Shown piece by piece: positions 17,698 through 60,393 of a stretch of 64,000 bases of DNA. The notes beneath the pieces were generated by a model that did not search any database, had not been told where the DNA came from, and was given only the letters and a program-made list of their open reading frames with translations. Positions within the stretch are counted from its first letter, which is position 1. Each line of letters begins with the position of its first letter. The stretch covers positions 15,950-79,949 of the forward strand of contig CADCVH010000031.1 in the NCBI GenBank assembly GCA_902806085.1. Reading direction: 5' to 3'. A program made the position numbers and the translations under genes. The DNA comes from an uncultured Rubrobacteraceae bacterium (GTDB taxonomy: Bacteria; Actinomycetota; Rubrobacteria; Rubrobacterales; Rubrobacteraceae).

Positions 17698-18510
17698 ATG
17701 GACGTTTCTCAGACCGTAAAGACGGACGTAAAGACCACCAACGGCATGATCCGGCCCGGCACCTTCCGGGTGATCGCCGGCCCCTGCACGGTCGAGAGCT
17801 ACGACCAGTTCGTCGCCTCGGCGACGGCCGTGAAGGAAGCGGGCTTCGAGTACGTCCGCGGCGGCGCCTTCAAGCCGCGCACCTCCCCCTACTCCTTCCA
17901 GGGCCTCGGCGAGGAGGGCCTGAAGATCATGTCCGAGGTCGCCGGCGAGTTGGGCCTCAAGGTGGTCACCGAGATCATGGACCCCTACGACATCGACCTC
18001 GTGATGGAGCACGCCCAGATCCTCCAGATCGGCGCCCGCAACATGGCTAATTTCTCTCTCTTGAAGCGCGTCGGCGCCGCCATCGCCGGCACGGACCACG
18101 GCGTGCTGCTCAAGCGCGGCCTCTCGTCGACGGTGCAGGAGTGGATCCTGGCCGCCGAGTACGTGACGGCCGCGGGCGGGGACAACGTGGTGCTCTGCGA
18201 GCGGGGCATCCGCACGTTCGAGCCCGCCACCCGCTTCACGCTCGACCTCTCCGCCGTGATCGTGGCGAAGAGGCTCACGGACCTGCCCGTGATCGTGGAC
18301 CCCTCCCACGCGGCCGGCCGGCGCGACCTCGTGGTCCCCCTCAGCAAGGCCTCGGTCGCCGCGGAGGCGGACGGCCTGATGGTCGAGAGCCACCACGACC
18401 CCCAGGAGGCCCTCTGCGACGGCGAGCAGGCGCTGCCCGTCGAGGCGCTCCTTGGCTTGAAAGAGGAGCTCACCCCCTTCGCCGGCGCGATGGGCCGGGA
18501 GGTCATCTAG
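17698..18510 (+). CDS. aroF: DAHP synthase (class I-beta, catalytic domain only)
   Basis: IAGPCTVES, RGGAFKPRTSPYSFQG, QIGARNM, LLKRG, CERGIRTFE, DPSH. Confidence 0.95.
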   Translation: MDVSQTVKTDVKTTNGMIRPGTFRVIAGPCTVESYDQFVASATAVKEAGFEYVRGGAFKPRTSPYSFQGLGEEGLKIMSEVAGELGLKVVTEIMDPYDIDLVMEHAQILQIGARNMANFSLLKRVGAAIAGTDHGVLLKRGLSSTVQEWILAAEYVTAAGGDNVVLCERGIRTFEPATRFTLDLSAVIVAKRLTDLPVIVDPSHAAGRRDLVVPLSKASVAAEADGLMVESHHDPQEALCDGEQALPVEALLGLKEELTPFAGAMGREVI

Positions 18511-18533
18511 TCCCGCCGGGCCCCGGGAGCGCC

Positions 18534-20144: not shown

Positions 20145-20201
20145 CCGCGTTCCGGGCGGCGCCGTTCAACACCGGCACCGCCTTACCTTATAATCACGCG
20201 C

Positions 20202-21779
20202 GTGAGAAGGCTTGCGGACAGGTTCGTTCTGGAGCGCGAGGTCGGCTCCGGCGGCATGGCGCGCGTCTTTTTAGGCCGCGACGAGGTCCTGGACCGGCCC
20301 GTGGCCGTGAAGGTCCTAAAGCCCATGCACGGGGACACGGACATCGGGGTGCGCTTCCGGCGCGAGGGGCGCACGGCGGCCAGGCTCTCGCACCCGAACA
20401 TCGTGCAGGTCTACGACGCGGGGGAGGGGGACCTCGACGGCGACGAGGTCTCCTACATCGTCATGGAGTACCTCCCCGGCGGGGACCTCAAGGAGCTTAT
20501 AGACGCGCGGGGGAGGCTGCCCGAGGGGGATCTCGCCCGGATCGGCGAGGAGGTCTGCGCGGGGCTCGCCCACGCCCACGGGCGGGGCGTCGTCCACCGC
20601 GACATAAAGCCGCACAACATCCTGCTGGACGAGAAGGGCCGGGCGAAGGTCTCTGATTTCGGGATCGCCCGCGCCCTGGACACCACCCAGGCCACCCGCA
20701 CGGGCGCGTACCTCGGGACCGCGCTCTACTCCTCGCCCGAGCAGCTTCAGGGGCACAAGGTGACGCCCAAGAGCGACGTGTACTCCCTCGGGGCGACGCT
20801 CTACCAGGCGGCGAGGGGCGAACCGCCCTTCACCGGCATGCCCCTGGAGGTCGCAAGCCAGCACGTCTCCAAGCCGCCGCCCCCGTTGTACGTCACCGAC
20901 CTTGGGGAGGAGATGCAGGCCCTGATCCTGTCCTGCCTCGCCAAGAACGCCGAAGACCGTCCGAGCGCGGAACAGGCCCTCGAACGCTTCGCCTCCGTCG
21001 TCCCGACGGCGTCGCCCGTCCCCCCCGCGGCCGAACCCCGGGGACCGCAACGCAAGCGCCCTCGTTCGGCCCGACCTGGGGCATCTTCCGGAAGAGGGAG
21101 TGGACGCCGGTCGGGCCGCATAGGCGGCGCTCTGGCAGCCCTGGCGATCCTGGCCGTGCTCGGCGTCGTCGGGGCCTTCGCCCTGTCGACCCTCCCCGGC
21201 GGCAACACCGACACGGGCCAGAACAACGCCCGTCAGAACGAGCAGGCCAACGCCGGCGGGGCAAACGTCCGCAACGGCGGAGACGAGAACCAGGCATCTC
21301 AGCGCGAGGACAACGCCGCAGAGAATGCCCCGGAGCCGACCACCCAGAACACACCGGAGCCGACCACACAAAACGCCGAAAACTCGGGAGAGAGGCCCGC
21401 GCCTTCGGGGGACGAGCCTGGGCAGAACGGTCAGCAGGGGCAGGACGAATCCCCAGAGCAGGCCGCGGCGCAGGCGGTGGAAGAGTTCTATACGACCGCC
21501 GCTGAGGGAGATTATCAGAGGTCTTCGCAACTTCTGACCTCCGGCTACCGGGAGACCACCTGGCCTTCGCAAGCGACCTTCGCCCAAACGTTCGATACGT
21601 TGCAGAGCGTTGATTTCACTAGTGGGCCAGCGGCCGAAGTTAGCGGCGATACGGCCACCGTCTCGGCCAGCACCATCGCGTATCATTCGGATCGAACCGA
21701 CAGGCGTACCGGAACGGCCAGCCTCGTCCGGGTGGGCGACGAGTGGAAGATAAGCAACCTGAACTTCCAACCAGCATGA
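20202..21779 (+). CDS. Hanks-type Ser/Thr protein kinase 2 (TM helix plus extracellular domain)
   Basis: GSGGMA, VAVK, HRDIKPHN, DFG, SPEQ; TM helix; 24-bp tandem repeat encoding APEPTTQN/TPEPTTQN; TATAAT 7 nt before the GTG. Confidence 0.92.
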   Translation: MRRLADRFVLEREVGSGGMARVFLGRDEVLDRPVAVKVLKPMHGDTDIGVRFRREGRTAARLSHPNIVQVYDAGEGDLDGDEVSYIVMEYLPGGDLKELIDARGRLPEGDLARIGEEVCAGLAHAHGRGVVHRDIKPHNILLDEKGRAKVSDFGIARALDTTQATRTGAYLGTALYSSPEQLQGHKVTPKSDVYSLGATLYQAARGEPPFTGMPLEVASQHVSKPPPPLYVTDLGEEMQALILSCLAKNAEDRPSAEQALERFASVVPTASPVPPAAEPRGPQRKRPRSARPGASSGRGSGRRSGRIGGALAALAILAVLGVVGAFALSTLPGGNTDTGQNNARQNEQANAGGANVRNGGDENQASQREDNAAENAPEPTTQNTPEPTTQNAENSGERPAPSGDEPGQNGQQGQDESPEQAAAQAVEEFYTTAAEGDYQRSSQLLTSGYRETTWPSQATFAQTFDTLQSVDFTSGPAAEVSGDTATVSASTIAYHSDRTDRRTGTASLVRVGDEWKISNLNFQPA

Positions 21780-21798: not shown

Positions 21799-22992
21799 CT
21801 GAAGACCGCACTGACAGCATTGGTATCCGCGATCATCGGGGGGCTGGTCACCGCGCTCTTCCTGATCATCGGGCTCTGGAGCAGCCTGGACGAGGGGCTC
21901 GGGGGTGGTGACAAGCCGGAGAATGTAACGATAAAGCAGGCGCCGGCGCCGAGCGAGCCCCCCGAGACGGCGGTCGGCGACGAGGGGCTCTCCGTGGGTG
22001 ACGTTTACAGGCAGGACGCCCCGGGCGTGGTGAGCGTGGACGTCACCTCCTCGGAGTTGGGCCCCGGGGGCGGCTCGGGGTTCGTGCTGGACGAGACGGG
22101 GCACATCGTGACCAACCAGCACGTGGTGGACGGGGCCGAGGAGATCTCGGTGCGGTTCGCCGGCGGGACGAGGGAGACGGCCGAGGTCGTCGGAGAGGAT
22201 CCGTCGACGGACGTGGCCGTGATCCGGGTGGGCGCGTCCAGGGACATGCTCGAGCCGCTGACGCTCGGGGACTCGGACGCGTTGGGCGTCGGGGAGCCGG
22301 TCGTCGCCATCGGCAATCCCCTGAACTTCGGCATAAGCGTGACCACCGGGATAGTGAGCGGGTTGGGGCGTCCCATCACCGCGCCCAACGACTACACCAT
22401 AGACAACGCCGTCCAGACCGACGCGGCCATAAGCTCGGGCAACTCCGGGGGGCCCTTGTTGGACGCGCGGGGGACCGTCATCGGGATCAACTCCCAGGTA
22501 GCCTCCACGGGCTCCGAAGGCGTTGCCCAGGGCGTCGGGTTCGCCGTGCCGATCAACACCGTCAAGGACACCGTCGAGGAGCTCATAACCACGGGCGAGG
22601 TCGTCCACGGCTTTATCGGGGTGAAGATGTTCCAGTACGGGATAGACGAGATCGTCGCCCTCACCGGCCTCTCGCTCGAAGAGCTGAACGGCAGGTACGG
22701 GCTCCCGGCCAACGGCGCCCTCGTGAGCGACGTGACGGGCGGGGGGCCGGCCGACGACGCGGGCATAAGCGGTGGCGGGGATGGAGAAGAGGTCGAGGGT
22801 GTCCCCGGCGTGCCAGTGGAGGGGGACGTGATCACGGCGGTCGAGGGCGAGAAGATCGGCGCCTCAGACGACGTGATCGAGGTCGTCAACGCCAGCGATC
22901 CTGGCGACGACATCTCGCTGACGGTCGTCACCCCGAACGAGGGCGAGCGCGAGGTCGAGCTGACCGTGGCCTCCCGCCCGGAAGACACGTAG
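21799..22992 (+). CDS. htrA: HtrA/DegP-like membrane-anchored serine protease with PDZ domain
   Basis: GSGFV, TNQHVV, DVAV, QTDAAISSGNSGGPL; N-terminal TM; PDZ. Start CTG 21799 or TTG 21820. Confidence 0.9.
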   Translation: MKTALTALVSAIIGGLVTALFLIIGLWSSLDEGLGGGDKPENVTIKQAPAPSEPPETAVGDEGLSVGDVYRQDAPGVVSVDVTSSELGPGGGSGFVLDETGHIVTNQHVVDGAEEISVRFAGGTRETAEVVGEDPSTDVAVIRVGASRDMLEPLTLGDSDALGVGEPVVAIGNPLNFGISVTTGIVSGLGRPITAPNDYTIDNAVQTDAAISSGNSGGPLLDARGTVIGINSQVASTGSEGVAQGVGFAVPINTVKDTVEELITTGEVVHGFIGVKMFQYGIDEIVALTGLSLEELNGRYGLPANGALVSDVTGGGPADDAGISGGGDGEEVEGVPGVPVEGDVITAVEGEKIGASDDVIEVVNASDPGDDISLTVVTPNEGEREVELTVASRPEDT

Positions 22993-34717: not shown

Positions 34718-35902
34718 CTAGTACTTCGGGACGCTCGGGTCGATCTCCTCGCTCCAGGCGGTGATGCCGCCCTTGACGTTGTAGACGTTCGTAAAGCCGG
34801 CGTCCTGCAGGAGCTTGACGGCCTTGGCGCTCCGCCCGCCGGTCTTGCAGTGGATGGCGAAGTTCTCGCTCTGGTCGAACTCCGCGAGGCGCTGCGGCAA
34901 TTCGCCCAGGGGCACGAGCTTCACGCCGATGTTCGCGACCTCGTACTCGTGCGGCTCGCGCACGTCGAGCACGTTGATGTCCTCGCCGTTGTCCAGCTTG
35001 CCCTTGAGGTCCTTGACCGTGATCTCCGGCACGCCGTTGTTCTCTTCGGCGGCGTTGGCCTGCGGGATGCCGCAGAACTCCTCGTAGTCGATGAGCCCGG
35101 TGACGGTCGGGTTCTCGCCGCAGATGGGGCAGTTCGGGTCCTTGCGCAGCTTCATCTCGCGGAAGCTCATCCCGAGGGCGTCGTAGAGCATCAAGCGGCC
35201 GATGAGCGGCTCGCCTATGCCCAGGATCAGCTTGACGGCCTCCGTCGCCTGGATCACCCCTATCGCGCCGGGGAGGATGCCAAGGACCCCGCCCTCGGCG
35301 CAGGAGGGAACCAGGCCGGGCGGCGGGGGCTCGGGGTAGAGGCAGCGGTAGCAGGGGCCTTCCTCGGCCCAGAAGACGCTCGCCTGGCCCTCGAAGCGGA
35401 AGATCGAGCCGTAGACGTTCGGCTTGCCGAGCAGGACGCAGGCGTCGTTCACGAGGTACCGCGTCGGGAAGTTGTCCGTGCCGTCCACGATCACGTCGTA
35501 GTCGCGGAAGATCTCGAGCGCGTTCTCGCTGGTCAGCGCCTCCTCGTGGACCACAACCTCGACGTTGGGGTTGATGTCCTTGATCTTGTCGCGGGCGCTC
35601 TCGACCTTCGGGCGCCCAACGTCCGAGGTGCCGTGGATGATCTGGCGCTGCAGGTTCGACTCGTCGACGACGTCGAAATCGACGATCCCGATGGTCCCGA
35701 CCCCGGCCGCCGCCAGGTACAGCGCGAGCGGGCTGCCGAGGCCGCCCGTGCCGACGGTGAGGACCCTGGCGGCCTTGAGCTTCTTCTGCCCGTCGAGGGC
35801 GACCTCGGGCATGATGAGGTGGCGGCTGTAGCGGGCTATCTCTTCGTTGGAGAGATCGACAGCCCCGTTGGGCGACTGCACTAACGGTTCGCGCGTCTGC
35901 AT
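34718..35902 (-). CDS. moeZ: ThiF/MoeB adenylyltransferase-rhodanese fusion
   Basis: RYSRH, GTGGLG, SNLQRQ, CYRC, PSCAEGGVLG, CPIC, rhodanese HCKTGGRS. Confidence 0.93.
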   Translation of the reverse strand: MQTREPLVQSPNGAVDLSNEEIARYSRHLIMPEVALDGQKKLKAARVLTVGTGGLGSPLALYLAAAGVGTIGIVDFDVVDESNLQRQIIHGTSDVGRPKVESARDKIKDINPNVEVVVHEEALTSENALEIFRDYDVIVDGTDNFPTRYLVNDACVLLGKPNVYGSIFRFEGQASVFWAEEGPCYRCLYPEPPPPGLVPSCAEGGVLGILPGAIGVIQATEAVKLILGIGEPLIGRLMLYDALGMSFREMKLRKDPNCPICGENPTVTGLIDYEEFCGIPQANAAEENNGVPEITVKDLKGKLDNGEDINVLDVREPHEYEVANIGVKLVPLGELPQRLAEFDQSENFAIHCKTGGRSAKAVKLLQDAGFTNVYNVKGGITAWSEEIDPSVPKY

Positions 35903-35953
35903 GTTATGAAAACCTCTTTGTAGGGAGTTACGGGTGAAAGACGGGGCGCGGGC

Positions 35954-36247
35954 CTAGAGACATCGCCCTTCGGACACACCACCGGCTATGGATGGAATTA
36001 TGGAGAGCTCGTCCGCGTCGGCGACCTCGGTGTCGGGGCCGTCGAGGTAACGGATGTCCTCGTCGCCCTTGTACACGTTGACGAACGAGCGCAGCTTGCC
36101 GTCGCCGGTGTAGAGGTGTTGCTTGAGGTCCGGGTACTCGGTGGCGAGGTTGCCGAGGGCGTCGCCCGCGGTGCCGCCGCCGACCTCGACCTGCGACTCC
36201 CCGCCGGTGTACTGCCTCAAGGGCGTTGGGATCTTGACCTTCGGCAT
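35954..36247 (-). CDS. cysO: MoaD/ThiS/CysO ubiquitin-like sulfur carrier with C-terminal extension
   Basis: IPTPLRQYT, FVNVY....DIRYL.G, IIPSIAGG followed by VSEGRCL. Confidence 0.85.
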   Translation of the reverse strand: MPKVKIPTPLRQYTGGESQVEVGGGTAGDALGNLATEYPDLKQHLYTGDGKLRSFVNVYKGDEDIRYLDGPDTEVADADELSIIPSIAGGVSEGRCL

Positions 36248-36265
36248 AATATTCTCCTCTTTCTC

Positions 36266-36685
36266 TTAACCTACGATGGTCTCTTCGTCGTAACCGGAAC
36301 GGTCATCCTGGAGCAGCCACGAGCGCATGTCTTGCACGCTCTCCTTGCCGACGGAGGCTATCACGTAAGAGTAGCCGGGCCAGGCGTGGTCCCGGTCGTA
36401 CTCGGACGGCTCCGCCGGGTGGTCCGGGTGGGAGTGGTAGAAACCGAGCACGCCCATCTCCCGCTCCTCGGCCCGGTCTTCGTACTCCTTGATCTTCGAA
36501 GGCTCGATCAAAAAGCGCCTGGACCGCTCCTCCTCGTGGGTGTTCTCCGCCCGCCACACGTCGACGACGACCTTCGTCCCGCCCGCGTCTATGCCCACGA
36601 GCGCCCCGGCGCACTCCTCTGGGTACGCCTCGAGCGCGTGCTCGTGGATCCTCTCGACGTCCCCCGCGCCTATCTTGAGGGCCAC
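36266..36685 (-). CDS. mec: JAMM/MPN+ (M67) metallopeptidase
   Basis: YPEEC.G and HSHPDHPAEPSEYD (HxH-x7-S-x2-D); GTG 36685 with GGAGG SD. Confidence 0.92.
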   Translation of the reverse strand: MALKIGAGDVERIHEHALEAYPEECAGALVGIDAGGTKVVVDVWRAENTHEEERSRRFLIEPSKIKEYEDRAEEREMGVLGFYHSHPDHPAEPSEYDRDHAWPGYSYVIASVGKESVQDMRSWLLQDDRSGYDEETIVG

Positions 36686-36686
36686 G

Positions 36687-37610
36687 CTAGTCCTCCCAGA
36701 AGCTCTCTGAGAGGTACTTGTCTGCCCCATCGCACAGGATGGTGACGACCGTGCCGGACTCTATCTCCCGGGCGACCTGCAGCGCCGTCGCGACGGCCGC
36801 GCCCGCCGAGATGCCGATGAGGACGCCCTCCTCGCGCGCGACGCGCTTGACCATCTCGTAGGCGTCCTCGGTGGCGGTGGCGCGGTTTTCATCGGCGACG
36901 GTGGGGTCGTAGATGGTGGGCACGATGGCGCTCCCCATGTGCTTCATCCCCTCCAACCCGTGAAACGCCCCGTCCGGCTCGAACGAGACGACCCGTATCT
37001 CCGGGTTGAACTCTTTGAGCCGCGTCGAAGTACCGACGAACGTCCCGCTGGTGCCGAGGCCCGCGACGAAGTGCGTGACCTCGCCGCCGGTCTCTTCCCA
37101 AATCTCGGGCGCCGTGCTCTCGTAGTGGGCCCTCGGGTTGGCCGGGTTGGAGTACTGGTCGGGGTAGAAGTACCGCTCCGGGTCCTCGGCGTAGAGCCGC
37201 CGCGCCTCCCTGATGGCCCCGTCGGAGCCCTCGCCCGGGTCCGTGAGCACGAAGTCCACGCCGTACGCCCTGAGGATCTTCTTGCGCTCCTCGCTGGCGT
37301 TCTTGGGCATGCACAGCTTGACCTTGTAGCCTAAAGCGGCCCCGATCCAGGCGTAGGCGATCCCGGTGTTCCCGCTCGTGGCGTCGAGGATGGTCTTCTG
37401 CGGCGTGAGCGCGCCGCTCCTCTCGCCGTCCCGGATCATCCACAAAGCGGGCCGGTCCTTGACGGAACCCCCCGGGTTGTACCACTCGGCCTTGCCCAGT
37501 ATCCGCACCCCGGGCGTCTCCGCCGCGATGGCAGGCAACTCCAAAAGCGGGGTGTTGCCCACGAGATCCGTCACGTTCTTCCCGACCTGTTTGTTAATCC
37601 GAGTAATCAT
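36687..37610 (-). CDS. cysM: PLP-dependent cysteine synthase (CysM type)
   Basis: GNTPL, NPGGSVKDR, ATSGNTG, GLGTSGT, GISAGA. Confidence 0.9.
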   Translation of the reverse strand: MITRINKQVGKNVTDLVGNTPLLELPAIAAETPGVRILGKAEWYNPGGSVKDRPALWMIRDGERSGALTPQKTILDATSGNTGIAYAWIGAALGYKVKLCMPKNASEERKKILRAYGVDFVLTDPGEGSDGAIREARRLYAEDPERYFYPDQYSNPANPRAHYESTAPEIWEETGGEVTHFVAGLGTSGTFVGTSTRLKEFNPEIRVVSFEPDGAFHGLEGMKHMGSAIVPTIYDPTVADENRATATEDAYEMVKRVAREEGVLIGISAGAAVATALQVAREIESGTVVTILCDGADKYLSESFWED

Positions 37611-51235: not shown

Positions 51236-51751
51236 CTAGGGGCGCTCCACCCTCTCGCAGTCGGCGGCCACTACGTCGCCAGGGCTGGCCTCGACGAAGT
51301 CCTCCCCCTCGCCGCAGCGGATGACGTCTATGGCGCCGGGCCCGGGGTCGCCGATCTGGTCGTCGCCGGCCCCACCGAGGAGGAGGTCGCCCCCCGCCGC
51401 GCCGACCAGGAAGTCGTCGCCGCCGTTGCCCTCGATGCGGTCGGCGCCGGGGCCGCCGTTTAGGCCCCTCTTGCCCCCCGGGCCGACGTCGAAGCCGGGG
51501 TTGTCGCCGCCGGGCCCGCCGCGGATCAGGTCCCTGCCGTCGTCGCCCAACACGCTGTCGTTGCCGCCCAGCCCGTCGAGCGTGTCAGCGCCGCCCAGGC
51601 CCCGGATCGTGTCTCGCGCGTCCGTGCCCACGATGGTGTCCGGGTCCTCGGTCCCCACGAAGCTGGCGGCGAGGGCCGCCCCCGCCGCCAGGGCCAAGAT
51701 CAACGCCGCCGCCGCCACGACAGAACCCGTTCGCCTGACCGTCGTCCTCAT
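51236..51751 (-). CDS. Secreted protein with hemolysin-type Ca-binding (GGxGxD) repeats
   Basis: Signal peptide ending ALA-A; repeats GLGGAD, GLGGND, GGPGGD, GNGGDD, GGAGDD. Confidence 0.85.
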   Translation of the reverse strand: MRTTVRRTGSVVAAAALILALAAGAALAASFVGTEDPDTIVGTDARDTIRGLGGADTLDGLGGNDSVLGDDGRDLIRGGPGGDNPGFDVGPGGKRGLNGGPGADRIEGNGGDDFLVGAAGGDLLLGGAGDDQIGDPGPGAIDVIRCGEGEDFVEASPGDVVAADCERVERP

Positions 51752-52021
51752 CTTTGCCCCCTGTTCTTCCGTTCGGGCATCCACGCTTACCATCTTAGGG
51801 CGGCGGCCCGGCCGCGGTCAAACCCGGCTTCGAGGCAGGTGGCGTACACAGTCCGTGGTGCCTGGAGTGTGCTGTCGACCTGAATTCCGTGGGCCGGCCC
51901 CAAAACGTTACAATCTGGCCGTGAGAGCTCTTGCCTTCCGGATTGGTGGATGCCCGACATTTGATCTCAATCAATCGATCCGGCCCGCCGCACGTTTTGG
52001 TCGGAAACGGGCGAGTTCTCG

Positions 52022-53233
52022 GTGCGGAGTGGTGCCCCACTGAGACGAAGCCAGGCTACTAAAGCCGCGCCGGCCCGGTCCGTCTGGGCCTTTGTTCTCG
52101 TGGTATTCGCGTCGTCGAGGTTGCTGTTCATGGGCGCCGGTGCCCTCGCCGTGCTGGTTCTGCCGCAGGCGGATCCTGCCGGGGACCCGTTGGGGCCGGC
52201 CGGCCCCTTGGGCTACTGGGCGCGCTGGGACGGGGCGTGGTACTCGGAGATCGCGACGGGGGGGTACGGGGAACGCGAGCCGGCCTCCACGGCCTTCTTC
52301 CCGCTCTACCCGATGCTGGTCAAGCTCGGGACCGTTGTCGGGGGCGGGCCGGCGTTGTGGGGGGTTGGGATCTCTCTGGCCGCCACGATCCTCGCGCTGT
52401 TTTTCGTCTACCGGATAGCGGAGAAGCTCTACGATGCCCGCGCCGCCCGCGGCGCCGCCCTCTGCCTGGCGTTCTTCCCCACGGCCTTTTTCCTGAACGC
52501 CGTCTACACGGAGGCGCTCTTCCTGGTCCTGACGACGGGTACTTTGTGGGCCGCGCTCGTGCGGCGGGACTTCCTGGCCGCCGGGGTCCTGGGGGCGCTC
52601 GCGGCGGCGACGCGCAACCTGGGCGTCCTGCTGCTGATACCGCTGTTTTTGGAGTGGGTGCGGCACCGGCGGGAACTGGGGCCGCGCGGCGTATTCGGGA
52701 TGGCCCTGGTGCCGGCGGGGCTTGCGTCGTACGCGGCCTATCTGTGGGCGCGTTTTGGGGAGCCGCTCGTCTTCGCGCGGCAGCAGGGGGAGTACTGGAA
52801 CCGGGAGGTCTCCGGACCCCTCGCGGCGCTCGGCGACGCCTGGAAGGCGGCGGGGGTCGGTGTGGAGTACGTGTTGGACCCGGAGACGCTCTTCCTCGGG
52901 ACCGACGCCACGCCGGCGCTTGAGGCTTCGAACGTGCTCAACCTGGCGTTCCTGGTCTTCTTTCTCGCCGGGGCGCTTGCGGGGCTTTTCGTGCTGCCGG
53001 CCGGGCTCTCGGTCTACGCCGCCGCCCTCGTGCTGCTGCCGGTGCTTACGCCCTCGCCCCGGTTCCCGCTCATGAGCCTGCCGAGGTTCGTGCTTGGGGC
53101 TTTTCCGGTGTTTCTGGTGCTCGGCTACTTTCTCTCGCGTTCCAGGTGGACCCTCGCGGTGTGGCTGGTGTTCTCGGGGGGCCTCGGGGCGGCGCTGACG
53201 GCCTTGTTCGTCACCTGGCGGTGGGTGGCTTAG
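52022..53233 (+). CDS. GT-C membrane mannosyltransferase-like protein
   Basis: WARWDGAWY..IA..GY, AFFPLYP, FPTAFF...YTEALF, R..G; many TM helices. Confidence 0.85.
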   Translation: MRSGAPLRRSQATKAAPARSVWAFVLVVFASSRLLFMGAGALAVLVLPQADPAGDPLGPAGPLGYWARWDGAWYSEIATGGYGEREPASTAFFPLYPMLVKLGTVVGGGPALWGVGISLAATILALFFVYRIAEKLYDARAARGAALCLAFFPTAFFLNAVYTEALFLVLTTGTLWAALVRRDFLAAGVLGALAAATRNLGVLLLIPLFLEWVRHRRELGPRGVFGMALVPAGLASYAAYLWARFGEPLVFARQQGEYWNREVSGPLAALGDAWKAAGVGVEYVLDPETLFLGTDATPALEASNVLNLAFLVFFLAGALAGLFVLPAGLSVYAAALVLLPVLTPSPRFPLMSLPRFVLGAFPVFLVLGYFLSRSRWTLAVWLVFSGGLGAALTALFVTWRWVA

Positions 53234-53259: not shown

Positions 53260-53604
53260 CTAGCGGCTTCCGCGGGCCTCCGACACCAGCAGGGCGATCA
53301 GGAGCAGTTCGACGATCTTGTCTATGTAGCCCGTGACGGTGCTGCTGCCGCCCGTAATGACGAGCCAGAGGACGATGGTCAGGGCCGTGTACCCGACGAA
53401 GACCCACCTTACGGCATTGCGGTGCGGGACCAGTTGGGGGATGGGCAGGTAGAGGGCGACTAGGAGCGTGAGGTAGCCGAGGCCGTTGAGGACGAAGAGC
53501 GGGAGACCCTGAAAACCCAGGTACAGGTGGACTATCGCCGTCACCACCGTCAGCACGATTATGCTGATCCTGAGCGTCAGTGCCGACGAGGCCGTGGTGG
53601 TCAT
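53260..53604 (-). CDS. Small hypothetical membrane protein
   Basis: Four TM helices (TAIVHL, LNGLGY, YIDKIVE); SD GGAGG before ATG 53604. Confidence 0.75.
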   Translation of the reverse strand: MTTTASSALTLRISIIVLTVVTAIVHLYLGFQGLPLFVLNGLGYLTLLVALYLPIPQLVPHRNAVRWVFVGYTALTIVLWLVITGGSSTVTGYIDKIVELLLIALLVSEARGSR

Positions 53605-53620: not shown

Positions 53621-54856
53621 TCAAGTTTTCTCCGGGACGCCCGAGCCCGCGGGGGTCCCGAAGCCTCCCACATCTCCGCCGGGCGCGGCGCGCCCCTTGG
53701 GCAGGGACAGGGCCACGGCCGGCAGGGCCAGGGCCGCGAGGATCGCACCTATAAAGTACGGCGCCGGGACGCCGAGGTCGTCGAAGGCCGCCCCGGCCAT
53801 CAACGGACCCGCGATGAGGGCGAGGCTCAGGACGGCCTGCACGCCCCCCATGAGACGGCCCTGCTCCTCCGCGGGAGCCCGCCGCGAGAGGAGCGCCGTC
53901 AGGGCCGGTATGGCGAGCCCCGCCCCGACCGCCAAAGCGCCGACGACCGGGTAGAGAGACCACCCTGAGGGGGAGGCGCCGACGAGCGCGAGGCAGAGCG
54001 CCGTGAGCGCGAGCCCGCCGAAGGCCAGCTTCTCTTCGCCGAAGCGTCCCTGCAGCCGCCCGACTAGCAGGCCCTGCGTCAGCACGGCGCACGCGCCGAC
54101 AAAGACGAAAAAGAACGCGTTCTCCGACGCCCCCCAGCCGAAGCGTGCGCCGGAGAAGAGCGGGAAGTTGGTCAGAAGGCCGGCGAAGGAGAGGTTCAGG
54201 AGAAAGACGGCGAGGAGGAGCGTGCCCGTGCCGCCCATCCGGACCGTCCTGACGAGCCCGGAGAAGGGGTCGAGGCGTAGGACCGGCGTGCGGGAACGCC
54301 TCCCTTCGGGCAGCGACTCCGGCAAGACGAAGAGGCCGAAGGCCGCGTTGAAGAGCGCGAGGCCGGAGGCGGCGAGGGCGGGGGCGTGGAGGGAGTGGAG
54401 GCTGAGGAGGCCGCCGAGCAGGGGACCCGTCATCAGCCCGAGCCCGAAGGCCGCCCCGAGGAGGCCGAGCCCCTTGGCCCGGTCTTCCGGCGGGGTGCTG
54501 TCCGCGATAAACGCCTGGGCGGTCGCCTGCGTCCCGCCCGCCGCCCCGGCGAGCGCCACGGCCACGACGACGAGGGCGAGGGTCCCGGCGAGCCCGAGCA
54601 GCGCGTAGGCCAGCGAGGCGCCGAGCAGGCAGATCACGAGCACGGGGCGGCGCCCGACGCGGTCGGAGAGGCCGGCCAGGAACGGGCCGCCGAAGAACTG
54701 CATCGCGGCGTAGAGGGAGCCCAGGGCCCCGACGAGTAATGCCCCGCCCGCGAGCCCCCCGGCGTAGAAGGGCAGGAGCGGGACGACGAGGCCGTAGCCG
54801 AGCATGTCCACGAAGACCGTGACGAACAGGAACGTCGCCGCGGCCTGGCGCCGCAT
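53621..54856 (-). CDS. MFS transporter (TetA/DHA1-like)
   Basis: VFVDMLG.G...P.LP, LSDRVGRRPVL, AFIAD, RAKG.G..GAAFG.G...GP..GG. Confidence 0.92.
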   Translation of the reverse strand: MRRQAAATFLFVTVFVDMLGYGLVVPLLPFYAGGLAGGALLVGALGSLYAAMQFFGGPFLAGLSDRVGRRPVLVICLLGASLAYALLGLAGTLALVVVAVALAGAAGGTQATAQAFIADSTPPEDRAKGLGLLGAAFGLGLMTGPLLGGLLSLHSLHAPALAASGLALFNAAFGLFVLPESLPEGRRSRTPVLRLDPFSGLVRTVRMGGTGTLLLAVFLLNLSFAGLLTNFPLFSGARFGWGASENAFFFVFVGACAVLTQGLLVGRLQGRFGEEKLAFGGLALTALCLALVGASPSGWSLYPVVGALAVGAGLAIPALTALLSRRAPAEEQGRLMGGVQAVLSLALIAGPLMAGAAFDDLGVPAPYFIGAILAALALPAVALSLPKGRAAPGGDVGGFGTPAGSGVPEKT

Positions 54857-54858
54857 CG

Positions 54859-55812
54859 CTAGCGCGCCCCGAGGCGTTCGAGGATGCGCCGCGCCTCTTC
54901 GACGGTCCTGCGGCTCACGGGTCCTTCGTCCGCGGCCCCGAGGGGCGGGCCGAACTCGACCCGGGTCGTCACGCCCCTCAGGGCCGGCACGAGCATCTGG
55001 AGGGTGGCGGAGAGCCACGCCCGGTCGCGGGGGTCGCGGCGGAGAAGGGCAACGGGATTGCGGAGGGCGGCGCGCGAGATCACGCCGCTCACCACCGCCG
55101 GGACGACGGTCAGGCCAGGGACGAGCCGGGCGAAGAGGTCGACGCTCCCCGACCACGCCCCGAGCGCCTCCGCGGCCCCCGGCAGCACGGCCGGGTCCGG
55201 CTCTATCCTGCCGCCGGGGAAGGTGATGACGGCGCCGCCCCCTCTCAGGTGGCGGGCGGCGGCCCTGATGGCGCCCGGGCGGCCCTTGGGGGTGACCGTG
55301 ATCAGGGCGCGCGCGGTGTTCGGGAGCGCGGAGAGGAAGGGCCGCTCCGCGGCGATCACCCTCAAGTCTTCCCTGGGCATCGCGGCGAAGAGTGCTACGG
55401 CGTCGGCCAGGCCGGGGTGGTTGGAGACGACGAGCAGCGGCCCCTCCCGGGGCACGCGCTCCCTCCCTTCCACCACGACGTCGCGGGACATCTGATCGAG
55501 CGCCCAGGCGCCGCCAGCGGGGAGGCCGGCCTCGCCCACGATGTCGTCGTAGGTCGAGATCTGGCCCGCCAGCCGCCGCGCCGGCACGGAGGCGAGAAGC
55601 TCCAGGAAAGACCTGACGGCGCCGGGGCCCAGATCTCCCAGCCCGAAAGCGGAGATCAAATCCCCCGAGCAGAGCTTCGCCAGCGCCTCGACCCGCTCGT
55701 CGCGCGCCGGTGCCCGCGCCGCGACGGGAAACGTGTTCGTGTTCTCCAGAGCGCCTCTCCCTGTTGCGTGGTCCGCCAACCCTGGTATGGACCCGGGCGG
55801 GCGCGGACCCAT
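54859..55812 (-). CDS. Lysophospholipid acyltransferase (PlsC-like) family protein
   Basis: SNHPGLAD (HxxxxD), FPGG, VVP; start uncertain. Confidence 0.75.
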   Translation of the reverse strand: MGPRPPGSIPGLADHATGRGALENTNTFPVAARAPARDERVEALAKLCSGDLISAFGLGDLGPGAVRSFLELLASVPARRLAGQISTYDDIVGEAGLPAGGAWALDQMSRDVVVEGRERVPREGPLLVVSNHPGLADAVALFAAMPREDLRVIAAERPFLSALPNTARALITVTPKGRPGAIRAAARHLRGGGAVITFPGGRIEPDPAVLPGAAEALGAWSGSVDLFARLVPGLTVVPAVVSGVISRAALRNPVALLRRDPRDRAWLSATLQMLVPALRGVTTRVEFGPPLGAADEGPVSRRTVEEARRILERLGAR

Positions 55813-55914: not shown

Positions 55915-56295
55915 TCAGGGCCTGCGGCGCAGGATCTGCACGGCCGAGCCCGAGAGGACGGTGTCGCCGAGCCGGACGTTGGGCTTCTTGACCTTTACCC
56001 GCACGGCCTCGACGAGCGGGTGCTCCTCCAGGGTCGCGTTCGCTATGCGCTCCGCGACGGTCTCCGTGAGGCCGGCGGGATCCCCCTCCACTACCTGCTT
56101 CGCCAGGCGGTGGACCTCGCCGTAATCCACGGTCTTTGTCAGGTCGTCGGAGAGGCCGGCGGGCCGCAGGTCCAGGCGCAGCTCGACGTCCACGACGAAG
56201 GGCTGCCCGAGCTCGCGTTCGGCGGGCAGGATACCGTGGCAGCCGTAGAAGACCATGCCTTCCAGGAGGATGCGGTCGTGGCTCTCGCCGTTCAT
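55915..56295 (-). CDS. folB: Dihydroneopterin aldolase
   Basis: DRI.L.G..F.G.HG....E...GQ.F.VD, TVDY, L.ET.AE.IA, VKKP; ATG 7 nt after TATACT. Confidence 0.92.
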   Translation of the reverse strand: MNGESHDRILLEGMVFYGCHGILPAERELGQPFVVDVELRLDLRPAGLSDDLTKTVDYGEVHRLAKQVVEGDPAGLTETVAERIANATLEEHPLVEAVRVKVKKPNVRLGDTVLSGSAVQILRRRP

Positions 56296-56372
56296 CCGGT
56301 GCAGTATACGTGTGCGTAAGGTCGTGTGCGCGGCGCTCGTGGCCCGTGCTAACCTTTGGGGCAAGGAAGGAG

Positions 56373-57074
56373 GTGGAGAGCATCGAGCGTCCGGCCGTCA
56401 CCGTAAGCTACGCCCAGACCCTTGACGGCCGCCTGGCGACCCTGGACGGGAGCTCGCAGTGGATCAGCGCCCCCGACACGCTCTGCTTCTCCCACGAGCT
56501 GCGCGCCTCCCACGACGCCGTCATGGTCGGCGCGGGCACGGTCGCCCGGGACGACCCGCGCCTCACCGTCCGCCTCGCCCCCGGCAAGAACCCCTTGCGG
56601 GTGGTCGTCGACAGCTCCCTGCGGACCCCGATGGACGCCGCCGTCCTCGCCGGCGGCGCGGCCCGGGGCACCATCCTCGCCGTCAACGGCCGCGCCCCCG
56701 AAGGGCGCCGCAGGGAGGCCGAGTCACTTGGCGCTACGGTCCTGCGGCTGCCCCCCGCCCCGGACGGCGGGGTCGACCTCGGGGCCCTGCTCGGGCGCCT
56801 GGGCGGCCTCGGGGTGCGCTCCGTGATGGTCGAGGGAGGGGCCGCCCTCATAACCGCCCTCCTGCGCGAGAGGCTAGTGGACCGGCTGGCGGTCTGCGTG
56901 GCACCAAAGATACTCGGCGCCGGCATAGAGGCCGTCGGCGACCTCGGCGTCCGGGATCTTGCGAGATCCATCTCCTTGACGGACGTGACCTTTACGCCGC
57001 GCGGCGGGGACCTGCTCCTCGACGGCCGCGTCGAGTACCCAACCTACCGCGATGCCGTCAGCCGCGCCGGGTAA
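56373..57074 (+). CDS. Stand-alone RibD C-terminal (pyrimidine reductase) domain protein
   Basis: YAQTLDG, SQWIS, DAVMVGAGTV..DDPRLTVR, VEGG, APK.LG; no deaminase domain. Confidence 0.85.
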   Translation: MESIERPAVTVSYAQTLDGRLATLDGSSQWISAPDTLCFSHELRASHDAVMVGAGTVARDDPRLTVRLAPGKNPLRVVVDSSLRTPMDAAVLAGGAARGTILAVNGRAPEGRRREAESLGATVLRLPPAPDGGVDLGALLGRLGGLGVRSVMVEGGAALITALLRERLVDRLAVCVAPKILGAGIEAVGDLGVRDLARSISLTDVTFTPRGGDLLLDGRVEYPTYRDAVSRAG

Positions 57075-58095
57075 CTTGAGGGCGAGGGCCCTATGGTTCT
57101 CGGGCCGGCGCGTCGCGGAGCTGCGGCCGGAGGACGCGCCCGCCCCCGGCCCCGGCGAGGTGCGCATCGAGGCCGCCCTCTCGGCCGTGAGCCACGGCAC
57201 CGAGATGCTCGTCTACCGGGGCGAGGTTCCGGAGGACCTTCCGCTGGATCTCCCGACCTTCGCCGGGGGTTTCTCGTTCCCGATAAAGCACGGCTACGCC
57301 TCCACGGGCCGCGTCCTGGACACCGGCCCCGGGGTCGAAATCCTCTCGCCGGGTGACCCCGTCTTCGTCCACCACCCTCACCAGGACGTCTTTACCGTCC
57401 CGGCCGGGTTCCCCGTGCGCCTGCCCGAAGCCCTCGATCCCCTCCGCGCCGTCTTCTTCGCCAACATGGAGACGGCCCTGAACGTCGTCCACGACGCCCC
57501 CGCGCGCCTCGGGGAGGCGGCGGTGGTCTTCGGCGGGGGCGTCGTGGGGCTGCTGGTAACCCGGCTGCTGAAGATGTCCGGGCTCTCACCGGTCCTCGCG
57601 GTCGAGCCCATACCCGAACGCCGAAAGCTAGCCCTGGAGATGGGCGCGGACGCGGCTTTCGGGCCGGACGAAGATCTGAAGGGGCGGGTGTACGGGGCGA
57701 CGGGCGGGCGCGGGGCGGACGTCGCGGTGGAGGCGAGCGGGTCGGGCGCGGCGCTGGCGGCGGCGGTCGAGTGCGTGGCGGTCGAGGGGACGGTCGTGGC
57801 CGCGTCCTGGTACGGGACGAAGCCCGTCGGCCTCCCCCTGGGCGGGCGGTTTCACCGGGGGAGGGTCAGGGTGAGGTCGTCGCAGGTGGGGATGGTCGCG
57901 CCGGAGCTTGCGGCGCGCTGGGACGGGGAGCGGAGGAGGGGGGCCGTGATCTCGCTTCTAGGAGACCCGCGGATACCGCTGGGTTCGCTCCCCGCCCATA
58001 GGGTGCCGTTCGGGGAGGCGCCGCACGCCTACCGGATGCTCGACGCGGGCAGAAACGGGGCCGTGCAGGTCGTTTTCGATTACGGGGGGATGTGA
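57052..58095 (+). CDS. MDR-superfamily dehydrogenase
   Basis: SAVSHGTE (no usual Zn Cys), GY, HPHQ, ETALN, GGGVVG, EASG, SWYG, FH..R. Confidence 0.85.
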   Translation: MPSAAPGNLRARALWFSGRRVAELRPEDAPAPGPGEVRIEAALSAVSHGTEMLVYRGEVPEDLPLDLPTFAGGFSFPIKHGYASTGRVLDTGPGVEILSPGDPVFVHHPHQDVFTVPAGFPVRLPEALDPLRAVFFANMETALNVVHDAPARLGEAAVVFGGGVVGLLVTRLLKMSGLSPVLAVEPIPERRKLALEMGADAAFGPDEDLKGRVYGATGGRGADVAVEASGSGAALAAAVECVAVEGTVVAASWYGTKPVGLPLGGRFHRGRVRVRSSQVGMVAPELAARWDGERRRGAVISLLGDPRIPLGSLPAHRVPFGEAPHAYRMLDAGRNGAVQVVFDYGGM

Positions 58096-58472
58096 TGTAC
58101 GAGGTATACGTCGCGGCGGCGTTCGAGGCGGCCCACCGCCTCGAAGGAGACTTCGGGCCGGCGACCCGCACCCACGGGCACACGTACAGGCTGGAGGCCG
58201 TCGTGCGCGGCGAGGGGCTCGCGCAGGACGGCACGCTCCTGGACATAGGCGAGCTGCGCGGGGCGGTTGACGGGGTTGCCGCCTCGCTGCACTACCGGGA
58301 TCTCGACGAGGTTCCGGGCCTGGCGGGCAAGAACACCACGGCCGAGGTCGTGGCGGGGTTTTGTTGGGATGAGATCTCACCCTCACTCCAGGGCCGCGGC
58401 CTCGCCTCGCTCACGGTGCGGGTCTGGGAGTCGCCGCAGGTCTACGCCGCCCGCGAGGAAGCCCTCGGCTGA
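58092..58472 (+). CDS. 6-pyruvoyl-tetrahydropterin synthase (COG0720) paralog, Cys-less FGPA type
   Basis: F.AAH.L, FGPATRTHGHTY, NTTAE, V.ES. Confidence 0.85.
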   Translation: MMYEVYVAAAFEAAHRLEGDFGPATRTHGHTYRLEAVVRGEGLAQDGTLLDIGELRGAVDGVAASLHYRDLDEVPGLAGKNTTAEVVAGFCWDEISPSLQGRGLASLTVRVWESPQVYAAREEALG

Positions 58473-58474
58473 CC

Positions 58475-59518
58475 TTGCGCGTCGCCTTCATAACGGTGGG
58501 GGACACCGACCGCCTCACCGGCGGCTACCTGTACAACAGGCGCGTCCTCGAAGGACTGGAGGAGAAGGACGTGAAGATGGAGGCCTTCGTCCCCTGCGGC
58601 GCGGTCCCGGGGGACCAGGCCGCGGCGGCGCCGGCCTTCGGCGACGGCTTCGACCCAGACCGTTTCGACGCCGTGGTGTTGGACGCGCTCGCGCGCATCG
58701 TCGCCGCCCCACACCTGGACCGCTGGAGATCCGGCCGCCCCGTCGTGGCGCTGGTCCACGAGCTTCCCGGCGTCGCCGAACCCTCCGCCGCCGACCGGGA
58801 GCGCCCGTTCGAGAGGGCCCTTCTCCGCTCGGACCGGCTCGTCGCCGTGAGCCGGCACGGAAGGGGGGTCTTGCTGGGCAAAGGTGTCGCCCCCTGGCGG
58901 GTCCACGTCGTCCCCCCCGGCTTCGACGGGCTGGGGCGACGTCCGGAAGGGAAGCCTCGCGACGGAGAAGCCCTGCGCGTCCTGTGCGTGGCGCAGTGGA
59001 TACCGCGCAAAGGCGTGCTCGACCTCGTCCGGGCCTGGAAGTCTGAGGGCAGGCCCGGGGCCGTCCTCGACCTCGTCGGCGAGACGGACGCCGACGCGGG
59101 TTACGCGGCGAAGGTGCGGGAGGCCGCGTCCGAAGATCCAGCCATCCTCGTTCACGGCCCGGTCGACGACGCGACCCTGGCCTGCCTCTACGCCTCCGCG
59201 GACGCTTTCGCGCTGCCCTCCCGCTACGAGGGCTACGGCATCGTCTACGCAGAGGCGCTCTCTTTCGGGCTGCCCGTCGTCGCCTGCCCCGTCGGGCCCG
59301 TTCCCGAGGTCGTCGGCGGGGAGGCCGCCCTGCTCGTCCCGCCGGGGGACGTGGACGCGCTCTCCGGGGCGCTGAACCGGGTCCTCTCGGATGCCGGGCT
59401 CAGGAGGAAGATGTCCGCCGCCGCGCTACGCCGGGTTGCCGGCCTCCCGCGTTGGGGGGACACGGTGGAAGGGTTCTTGACGGTGTTACGGGACTTGGTT
59501 GCGGAGCGGAGAAGATGA
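58475..59518 (+). CDS. GT4 family glycosyltransferase
   Basis: TGGYLYN, RKG, PSRYEGYGIV.AEA...G.PVV. Confidence 0.9.
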   Translation: MRVAFITVGDTDRLTGGYLYNRRVLEGLEEKDVKMEAFVPCGAVPGDQAAAAPAFGDGFDPDRFDAVVLDALARIVAAPHLDRWRSGRPVVALVHELPGVAEPSAADRERPFERALLRSDRLVAVSRHGRGVLLGKGVAPWRVHVVPPGFDGLGRRPEGKPRDGEALRVLCVAQWIPRKGVLDLVRAWKSEGRPGAVLDLVGETDADAGYAAKVREAASEDPAILVHGPVDDATLACLYASADAFALPSRYEGYGIVYAEALSFGLPVVACPVGPVPEVVGGEAALLVPPGDVDALSGALNRVLSDAGLRRKMSAAALRRVAGLPRWGDTVEGFLTVLRDLVAERRR

Positions 59519-60393
59519 GCGGGCCGGACCCCGACGGAATGCGCGACCAGAACCGCCGCTCGTGGAACGCGGTCGTGGGGGCGCACGACAGCCACCGCGG
59601 GGACCTCGCCGGTTTCCTCGAGGCCGGCGGCTCCACGCTCTTCCCCGAAGAGCTAAGGCTCCTCGGAGACCTGTCGGGCAAGACCGTGGCGCACCTGCAA
59701 TGCAACTCCGGGGGCGACTCGCTCAGCCTCGCCCGCCGCGGGGCGGAGGTGACGGGGGTGGACCTCAGCGACGGGGCGGTGCGCTCGGCCCGCCGCCTCT
59801 CGGAGGGGAGCGGCATCCCGGCCCGGTTCGTCCGCGCCGACGTGTACGACTGGCTGGCGGAGACCGCGAAGGATGGGGGTCGCTTCGACGCCGTCTTCGC
59901 CTCCTACGGGGTCGTCTGCTGGCTGCCGGACCTCGCCTCCTGGGCCGGCGGAATAGCCTGCGTCCTGGTGCCCGGCGGGCGCTTCGTGCTCGTGGACTTT
60001 CATCCGGCCGCCGAGGTCCTCGACGAGGACTGGAACCCCGCCCGCGACTACCCCTCCGGCGGGGAGCGGCTGCTCCTCCAAGAGGGCGTCGGAGACTACG
60101 TGGCGGCCTCGGGAGGCGGGCTCACGCCGGCCGGCTTCGCGCGGGGCGTCGGCGGGTTCGAGAACCCCGAACCCTGCCACCTGTTCCGGTGGGGTCTCGG
60201 CGAGGTCGTCACGGCGCTGGCCGGGGTCAAGCTAGAGATAACCGCCCTCGAAGAGTACCCGCACTCCAACGGCGAGCGGCACTTCGCCCGCATGCGCGAG
60301 TTGCCCGGACGCCGGATGGTCCCGCCGGAAGACGTGCCCGCCCTGCCCCTCATGTACGGTGTTCGGGCCGAAAAGTCGGTGGCTGAAGCCTGA
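59515..60393 (+). CDS. Class I SAM-dependent methyltransferase
   Basis: HLQCNSGGD, GVDLS, FD.VF.SYG...WLPDL..W, GG.F...DFHP. Confidence 0.88.
   Translation: MSGPDPDGMRDQNRRSWNAVVGAHDSHRGDLAGFLEAGGSTLFPEELRLLGDLSGKTVAHLQCNSGGDSLSLARRGAEVTGVDLSDGAVRSARRLSEGSGIPARFVRADVYDWLAETAKDGGRFDAVFASYGVVCWLPDLASWAGGIACVLVPGGRFVLVDFHPAAEVLDEDWNPARDYPSGGERLLLQEGVGDYVAASGGGLTPAGFARGVGGFENPEPCHLFRWGLGEVVTALAGVKLEITALEEYPHSNGERHFARMRELPGRRMVPPEDVPALPLMYGVRAEKSVAEA

Follow-up and report, generated by a model that had tools for sequence, protein, structure and literature searches.

A Rubrobacteraceae form of the PTPS-IV gene cluster with a retained zinc site and a membrane/lipid gene context

We analysed an operon at positions 56373-60393 of a 64,000-nucleotide stretch of DNA (hereafter the window) from contig CADCVH010000031.1 of an uncultured Rubrobacteraceae bacterium (assembly GCA_902806085.1). 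The operon consists of five translationally coupled genes, which encode a RibD_C reductase, an MDR-superfamily dehydrogenase, a PTPS protein, a GT4 glycosyltransferase and a methyltransferase. We propose, with a probability of roughly 55% and inferring every chemical step, that it is the Rubrobacteraceae form of a conserved PTPS-IV (SCO6650-type) cluster for an orphan pathway that would lead from GTP to a glycosylated, methylated and probably membrane-bound product. The cluster itself is already known; the window holds a new variant of it, with a zinc site and a membrane/lipid gene context. An initial annotation, made from the sequence without database searches, had described an uncharacterised pterin/flavin-modification operon. 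That reading was largely right, and we amend it on the entry point of the pathway, the likely membrane fate of the product and the zinc site, which is retained.

A coupled operon and its five proteins

The tight coupling of the five genes, already noted in the initial annotation, is borne out by their junctions, at which the reductase and MDR genes overlap by 23 nt, the MDR and PTPS genes by 1 nt (TGATG), PTPS and GT4 stand 2 nt apart, and an ATGA overlap of 4 nt couples the GT4 and methyltransferase genes (Table 1). The gene boundaries are identical in the public gene calls of three ENA contigs, and an AAGGAGG ribosome-binding site precedes the GTG start of the RibD_C gene. The five-gene operon is real. 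The window has a G+C content of ~69%, the closest relatives of its proteins are in Rubrobacter and in Rubrobacteraceae metagenome-assembled genomes (MAGs), and matching DNA was found in biocrust, rock, lichen and soil metagenomes.

The operon is transcribed, as seen in assembled low-depth contigs that carry no strand information and may contain DNA. These contigs, from four biocrust metatranscriptomes (X5, X6, X12 and X13), are 95-100% identical over the operon and the adjacent folB and acyltransferase genes, and they cross three of the four junctions (RibD_C/MDR, PTPS/GT4 and GT4/methyltransferase); coverage is lowest in the region of the MDR/PTPS junction (57.75-58.4 kb). One X13 contig lacks 185 nt of the MDR gene (57510-57696), which is probably an assembly or strain variant. 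Neither a sigma-70-like site nor a riboswitch was found in the divergent intergenic region at 56296-56372, and between 55.7 and 60.7 kb no promoter or terminator prediction exceeded the shuffled expectation. Scans for riboswitches and RNA families across the window and seven cluster loci returned just one tRNA and an unrelated thiamine pyrophosphate (TPP) element, and no flavin mononucleotide (FMN) riboswitch. The TPP riboswitch (locus L021, 937-1088, minus strand) lies ~9 kb from a Vreelandella PTPS-IV cluster and is probably unrelated to it.

Alignment places the window PTPS in the PTPS-IV subfamily of COG0720. Its PF01242 match covers 118 of the 121 profile positions, and its best PDB match is 3d7j (SCO6650 of Streptomyces coelicolor, 40% identical), ahead of QueD; against the QueD equivalog TIGR03367 it scores 53.7 bits, below the cut-off of 89.25. 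The protein carries the motif FGPATRTHGH, in which Ala23 aligns with the catalytic Cys27 of Escherichia coli QueD, and His-Tyr replaces the Asp-His pair of QueD. The top-scoring E. coli QueD entry in the PDB is 4ntk, which has Ala where wild-type entries have Cys27; it outscores them because the query also has Ala there, an incidental confirmation of the alignment. The CxxxxxHGH motif of PTPS-II and the ExxHGH motif of PTPS-III (PMC5041015) are absent, as the corresponding GPATRTHGH of the window protein has neither the Cys nor the Glu. Proteins of COG0720 that bear FGPAQ have been designated PTPS-IV, with PF00925 (GTP cyclohydrolase II) in their neighbourhood (PMC5445326); the signature is also given in PMC5041015, and the name that the initial annotation had given to its FGP-type subgroup was the right one.

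The PTPS had been called a Cys-less FGPA-type protein, which stands; the correction concerns its metal site. His14, His27 and His29, which align with the three zinc ligands of QueD, are all kept, as are residues aligned with the QueD ring-binding site. FGPA is invariant in all 87 aligned family sequences, of which 66, SCO6650 included, read FGPAQR[LT]HGAT and have lost the third zinc histidine. The remaining form, FGPA[TS]R[TL]HGHT, keeps all three histidines and occurs in 21 sequences, from the window, Rubrobacter, Chloroflexia, a Clostridia MAG and Candidatus Onstottus; Thr in place of Gln (FGPAT), as in the window protein, is found in 19 of the 87. The loss of the zinc site reportedly described for SCO6650 (Spoonamore 2008), where the motif ends in HGA, does not extend to the window protein (HGH). 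One of two new points here is a complete three-His zinc site, predicted from the alignment and unlike that of most family members.

The first gene encodes a reductase whose only Pfam domain is PF01872 (165 bits). As the initial annotation had it, the N-terminal deaminase domain is missing, and the protein aligns solely to positions 140-340 of TIGR00326; it scores 170.3 bits against TIGR00227, above the cut-off of 150.15. Its best solved relatives are archaeal 2,5-diamino-6-ribosylamino-4(3H)-pyrimidinone 5'-phosphate reductases (6p8c, 7e-33; 2azn, 8e-32), ahead of bacterial RibD. The bit scores are 117 and 114 against these archaeal enzymes, 84 against Bacillus subtilis RibG and 35 against the dihydrofolate reductase (DHFR)-like Rv2671; the archaeal ArfC equivalog TIGR01508 gives 142.6 bits, below its cut-off of 186.45. 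In the dehydrogenase, the reported lack of the catalytic zinc Cys is evident from Ser47, Tyr82 and Ala83, which align with the zinc-binding Cys and His-Glu of butanediol dehydrogenase 6ie0. The whole protein has one Cys, and both the catalytic zinc ligands and the structural Cys4 site are absent. In place of the former zinc ligands, at least 90% of 61 family members share Ser47, Lys79, Tyr82 and His110, and the Rossmann domain (PF00107 at 1.4e-19) retains conserved G161, G163 and G166.

The glycosyltransferase has an intact EX7E motif (E252 and E260, conserved in at least 90% of 61 sequences). Its best solved relatives are MshA (7qsg, 2e-20, 76.7 bits), PimB', PimA and BshA, enzymes that act on polyol phosphate, lipids and malate. 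We ruled out that it is a known pteridine glycosyltransferase of the BGluT/PGT type, given 22.5 bits (E=5.5e-4) against tetrahydrobiopterin glucosyltransferase 5zer compared with 76.7 for MshA. The methyltransferase belongs to a family specific to the Rubrobacter lineage, and other lineages have non-orthologous methyltransferases at the same place. None of the core or accessory proteins of the cluster is covered by a specific NCBIfam model.

Conservation of the cluster and its probable entry enzyme

A pattern scan with one genome per species identified at least 592 PTPS-IV relatives, and we studied 80 of these loci together with six from metagenome contigs. Family hidden Markov models built from the neighbouring genes were searched against all open reading frames of the loci, and representative members were used to verify which Pfam families the neighbours belong to. 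Counts given here refer to 74 loci in 10 taxon groups. PTPS and GT4 were each found in 73 of them, with GT4 directly downstream of PTPS, and MDR, directly upstream, in 70; in at least 70 loci the three genes are collinear on one strand. Less constant are a methyltransferase of any of three non-orthologous families (59 loci), RibD_C (51), GTP cyclohydrolase II (47), the flippase-like LPG_synthase_TM (43), a CDP-alcohol phosphatidyltransferase (42), a creatininase-family protein (27), a sulfatase-like membrane protein (22) and a PlsC-type acyltransferase (10, in nine Rubrobacter and one betaproteobacterium). At least one of the four membrane/lipid gene families is present in 64 of the 74, a recurrent context that is the second new point. 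The census agrees with the association with ribA/ribD paralogs, dehydrogenase, glycosyltransferase and methyltransferase genes that had been described for the subgroup, and in the neighbourhood check suggested in the initial annotation MDR, PTPS and GT4 are conserved as a unit.

Two loci carry all six functions together. In the Rubrobacter MAG L013, a sister of the window genome, ribA lies directly upstream, giving the string ribA-ribD_C-MDR-PTPS-GT4-methyltransferase, and ribA and folB stand on either side of the same divergent promoter region. The Chloroflexia locus L018 has the same six functions, and its PTPS is 69% identical. From the gene order in the census and these two six-gene sets, we conclude that the five genes form a functional unit and that GTP cyclohydrolase II is its usual entry enzyme. 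The GTP origin that had been proposed for the product is also supported, since 47 of 74 loci, and the L013 operon itself, include GTP cyclohydrolase II. A chance adjacency of five unrelated genes is hardly credible. Unrelated flanking genes (a Ca/H exchanger and PHP) are likewise syntenic within Rubrobacteraceae, as such an accident of descent would have it, but the reading frames of the operon overlap or abut, and the same MDR-PTPS-GT4 order in 10 taxon groups with different flanks contradicts the idea.

The Streptomyces loci have features of their own. In all 19, the RibA residue aligned with Tyr105 of the E. coli enzyme is Met or Leu, and a creatininase-family gene is present. Substitution at the Tyr105 position reportedly makes RibA stop at a formylated intermediate (Spoonamore 2006), and a deformylase would then restore the same diaminopyrimidine. 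The match between non-Tyr RibA and creatininase is confined to Streptomyces and so may reflect a single event. As a constant companion of the cluster, the creatininase gene is ruled out by its presence in 27 of 74 loci.

A proposed route from GTP and its alternatives

We propose that the pathway is opened by a GTP cyclohydrolase II encoded outside the window, which would convert GTP to 2,5-diamino-6-ribosylamino-4(3H)-pyrimidinone 5'-phosphate. RibD_C would reduce the ribosyl to a ribityl group without prior deamination, in the archaeal order of steps, and the zinc-less, NAD-type MDR and the Cys-less PTPS-IV would then remodel the ribityl-diaminopyrimidine, with Glu and Thr/Glu, at positions common to PTPS-IV and QueD, presumably binding the 2-amino-4-oxo ring. 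One chemically economical option is that MDR oxidises C2' of the ribityl chain, producing the keto-amine that GTP cyclohydrolase I forms in its Amadori step, and that ring closure then yields a dihydroneopterin-phosphate-like pterin. GT4 may place a sugar on a side-chain hydroxyl, as MshA does on inositol phosphate, and the methyltransferase may tailor the product. The PlsC-type acyltransferase divergent from the operon probably acylates it, giving it a membrane location; in other lineages a CDP-alcohol phosphatidyltransferase, a flippase-like protein or a sulfatase-like transferase would stand in place of the acyltransferase.

The pathway most likely starts from the product of GTP cyclohydrolase II, and not from an existing pterin or flavin. 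Because the partner cyclohydrolase is of type II and the reductase is closest to archaeal enzymes, we favour de novo synthesis over pterin/flavin modification, so that the GTP origin in the initial annotation is kept and the modification of a ready-made pterin or flavin is dropped. A precedent for a non-flavin fate of the RibA product is Chlamydia, where it is converted to dihydroneopterin phosphate through an Amadori-type step (PMC4161248). As to the product, for which the initial annotation had offered a cofactor, a pigment or a UV/oxidative protectant, the membrane or lipid genes in 64 of 74 loci and the divergent PlsC-type acyltransferase suggest that it is membrane-associated and not a soluble compound of these kinds. 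As had been said of the subgroup, no product is named for the cluster in NCBIfam or in the searchable literature (queried for SCO6650/6655 and combinations of enzyme names), and a 2026 riboflavin review still ascribes to the third S. coelicolor RibA, encoded in the cluster, a new role that has nothing to do with flavins.

Several observations weigh against this proposal. No GTP cyclohydrolase was found in the window, as was noted at the outset: tblastn with 36 cluster-associated RibA sequences gave zero matches at E<=1e-3, and Pfam scans of most of the 59 genes called (the calls are approximate) returned no GTP cyclohydrolase I, IB, II or III. RibD_C is missing in 15 of the 19 Streptomyces loci, and the reduction step is therefore not universal. 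The Rubrobacter form has no CDP-alcohol phosphatidyltransferase, flippase-like or sulfatase-like gene, and its link to the acyltransferase comes from one independent lineage and from a lineage-wide synteny that also spans unrelated neighbours. CDP-alcohol phosphatidyltransferases, in turn, are able to make soluble phosphodiesters too. The RNA contigs have the low depth, missing strand information and possible DNA carry-over given above. Finally, PTPS-IV is said to take part in archaeal F420 synthesis, with unpublished work cited (PMC5041015).

This last statement favours an alternative in which the cluster is dedicated to making a riboflavin/F420 precursor by steps in the archaeal order. Ribityl-diaminopyrimidine would come from GTP cyclohydrolase II and RibD_C, and a zinc PTPS-IV would contribute the missing 2-deamination, or some other reaction on the way to the 5-amino-6-ribitylamino-uracil needed for FO/F420. 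By 2017 the archaeal pyrimidine deaminase had yet to be tested, the reductase is of archaeal type, and a luciferase-like, possibly F420-dependent oxidoreductase (L018, 14421-15344, minus strand) adjoins the cluster ribA in the Chloroflexia locus. The window PTPS keeps the three-His site that a zinc enzyme would use; however, with the third His lost from 66 of the 87 sequences, zinc-dependent deamination cannot be what PTPS-IV does in general. Nor does the scheme have a role for the invariant GT4 and MDR, the methyltransferases or the membrane genes, none of which belongs to FO or riboflavin synthesis, and the window and the seven loci scanned have no FMN riboswitch. We regard it as distinctly unlikely.

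A classical route to a pterin glycoside is also unlikely in our view. Here PTPS would act on dihydroneopterin triphosphate made by GTP cyclohydrolase I, MDR and RibD_C would serve as sepiapterin-reductase-like and DHFR-like pterin reductases, FolB would supply 6-hydroxymethylpterin, and GT4 and the methyltransferase would complete a soluble, cyanopterin- or biopterin-glucoside-like absorber of UV-A. The idea suits a sun-exposed biocrust, and cyanobacteria and Chlorobium are known to have such glycosides and the enzymes that glycosylate them, but the window GT4 matches BGluT marginally, at 22.5 bits. The zinc histidines and the residues aligned with the QueD ring site are kept in the PTPS, whereas the catalytic Cys and the Asp-His pair of PTPS/QueD are replaced. 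The reductase prefers ribosylamino-pyrimidine reductases (117 bits) to the DHFR-like Rv2671 (35 bits), and the co-clustered cyclohydrolase is of type II, never type I, across the 74 loci. The divergent neighbour is indeed a FolB equivalog, yet FolB is adjacent in the Rubrobacter lineage only.

FolB also raises the question of a folate pterin route without GTP cyclohydrolase I, in which RibA, RibD_C, MDR and PTPS-IV would make dihydroneopterin phosphate for cleavage by FolB, with GT4 and the methyltransferase working on a side product. Such a bypass is possible for the Rubrobacter lineage alone, and as an account of the cluster we consider it improbable. The core cluster also occurs in Streptomyces and Halomonadaceae, which we take to have normal folate genes; FolB is unlinked to the cluster outside Rubrobacter, and GT4 is as conserved as PTPS. 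What speaks for the bypass is that folB adjoins the operon on its own, neither folP nor folK lying within 10 kb, that ribA and folB flank the same divergent promoter region in L013, and that Chlamydia RibA and TrpF lead to dihydroneopterin phosphate (PMC4161248).

The proposed GTP cyclohydrolase II-initiated pathway can be extended to a bolder hypothesis, which we put forward tentatively and think rather doubtful as a whole: RibA, RibD_C, the zinc-less MDR and PTPS-IV may constitute an unrecognised, GTP cyclohydrolase I-independent route to a 2-amino-4-oxo pteridine or ribityl-pyrimidine head group. This head group would receive a sugar and a methyl group and be tethered to the membrane, through acylation in the Rubrobacter form and, in other phyla, through phosphatidyl transfer and flipping. 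If true, hundreds of bacteria from soil and crusts and among the halophiles would share an envelope lipid or glycoconjugate of a new class, and the zinc-retaining PTPS of Rubrobacter and Chloroflexia would be an evolutionary intermediate between QueD and the metal-free SCO6650 type. The PTPS-IV cluster is present in at least 592 species-level genomes, with a solved structure and one characterised enzyme and no product assigned. The census shows that its invariant core is MDR-PTPS-GT4, the sister loci with ribA in the operon mark the likely entry point of the pathway, and the window variant is compact and keeps the PTPS metal site, which should ease enzymology. The recurrent membrane/lipid context suggests that earlier searches for soluble pterins or flavins may have examined a fraction that does not contain the product. 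A new envelope component in crust bacteria that tolerate desiccation and radiation, if that is what the product is, would bear on stress biology and on the diversification of GTP-derived metabolism.

Surroundings of the operon and comparison with known systems

The functional unit probably reaches past 56373-60393, to the acyltransferase and perhaps to FolB (Table 1). The acyltransferase is present in nine of nine Rubrobacter loci, and in the betaproteobacterium L056 the cluster begins with a homologue of 44% identity; among the neighbours of the Rubrobacter form, it is the one with support from an independent lineage. FolB scores 102.2 bits against the equivalog TIGR00525 (cut-off 72.15) and adjoins the operon in all Rubrobacter-type loci and in no other lineage. 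Apart from the acyltransferase, these Rubrobacter neighbours, FolB among them, may adjoin the operon through lineage-wide synteny. The MFS transporter is found in seven of nine Rubrobacter loci (absent from L004-L006), and the GT-C gene is conserved within the Rubrobacter lineage only, where general synteny is also conserved. The Rubrobacter form has no creatininase gene and has its own methyltransferase family.

Table 1. Features of the operon and its neighbourhood (window positions).
Feature	Position	Strand	Details
GT-C-type (PMT_2/PIG-V-like) membrane glycosyltransferase	52131..53233	+	PF13231, PF04188; link weak
114-aa membrane protein	53260..53604	-	no Pfam match; conserved in Rubrobacter loci only; link weak
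MFS transporter, possible exporter	53621..54856	-	411 aa, PF07690; link weak
PlsC-type acyltransferase	54859..55812	-	317 aa, PF01553, HX4D = NHPGLAD; probable accessory gene
FolB dihydroneopterin aldolase	55915..56295	-	126 aa, PF02152; link to operon uncertain
Divergent folB/operon intergenic region	56296..56372	.	77 bp; presumed promoters
RibD_C-only reductase	56373..57074	+	233 aa, GTG start, PF01872 at 2.2e-48
MDR-superfamily dehydrogenase without zinc sites	57052..58095	+	347 aa, PF00107, GxGxxG nucleotide fold
PTPS-IV-type T-fold protein, Cys-less	58095..58472	+	125 aa, PF01242 at 9.3e-29
GT4 (GT-B) glycosyltransferase	58475..59518	+	347 aa, TTG start, PF13692 and PF00534
Class I S-adenosylmethionine-dependent methyltransferase	59515..60393	+	292 aa, PF13649, PF08241, PF08242

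Elsewhere in the window we noted several other genes. Upstream of the GT-C glycosyltransferase is a 185-aa protein with RTX calcium-binding nonapeptide repeats (51236-51793, minus strand). A PLP-dependent CysM-like enzyme (PALP), a JAB/Mec+-type protease, a ThiS/CysO-like sulfur carrier and a ThiF-rhodanese (MoeZ-like) activator are adjacent at 34718-37610 (minus strand) and look like a mycobacterial CysO-type cluster for protein-thiocarboxylate-dependent cysteine synthesis. A 2-phosphosulfolactate phosphatase (ComB) family protein (PF04029; 39813-40553, plus strand), without obvious coenzyme M context, adjoins an aldo/keto reductase and a chlorite-dismutase-like (HemQ-type) protein. Two consecutive Ser/Thr protein kinases (18141-21779, plus strand) are followed by an HtrA-like trypsin-PDZ protease (21820-22992), and a stand-alone 152-aa cytidine/deoxycytidylate-type zinc deaminase (PF00383; 14609-15067, plus strand), 41 kb from the operon, is a conceivable candidate for a pyrimidine deaminase but has no link to the cluster.

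The closest known system is SCO6650-SCO6655 of S. coelicolor, in which SCO6655 is the RibA paralog. It shares with the window the Cys-less FGPA PTPS and the MDR-PTPS-GT4 core, and clusters of this kind associate with GTP cyclohydrolase II and a methyltransferase. The two differ in the PTPS itself (HGH in the window, HGA in SCO6650, at 40% identity), in the RibD_C gene, which is part of the window operon and absent from 15 of 19 Streptomyces loci, and in their accessory genes: the window has no creatininase, CDP-alcohol phosphatidyltransferase or flippase-like gene, uses another methyltransferase family and has the PlsC-type acyltransferase and FolB as neighbours. Compared with QueD (PTPS-I), the window PTPS is of the same Pfam family and has the same three zinc histidines and ring-site-aligned residues, but it has Ala for Cys and His-Tyr for Asp-His and falls below the equivalog cut-off; queC and queE were not found among the window genes that were Pfam-scanned.

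The archaeal ArfA/ArfB/ArfC system resembles the cluster in its stand-alone reductase, since that of the window is closest to the ArfC type, in the logic of reducing before deaminating and in the creatininase-family genes of many sister clusters. In contrast to it, the cluster cyclohydrolase is of type II and not type III, the creatininase homologue is nearer to MftE and creatininase than to ArfB, and lumazine, riboflavin or FO synthase genes are not linked. Pteridine glycoside synthesis (BGluT/PGT) likewise pairs a GT-B glycosyltransferase with pterin-type enzymes in sun-exposed habitats, whereas the window GT4 is non-orthologous, its PTPS lacks the catalytic residues and the linked cyclohydrolase is of type II. 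With the initiation of mycothiol, bacillithiol and phosphatidylinositol mannoside (PIM) synthesis (MshA, BshA and PIM enzymes), the likeness lies in GT4, which is closest to MshA, PimA, PimB' and BshA, and the combination of GT4 with a CDP-alcohol phosphatidyltransferase or acyltransferase recalls the phosphatidylinositol/PIM operon (pgsA1-acyltransferase-pimA). GT4 nevertheless scores far below the equivalog cut-offs, and its RibA, RibD_C and PTPS partners point to a pyrimidine or pterin acceptor, not inositol. In Chlamydia, finally, RibA and TrpF put the GTP cyclohydrolase II product to a non-flavin use, possibly a pterin route, as we propose for the cluster (PMC4161248); the window has a reductase, a dehydrogenase and a T-fold protein in place of a TrpF-like isomerase, and its purpose may be other than folate.

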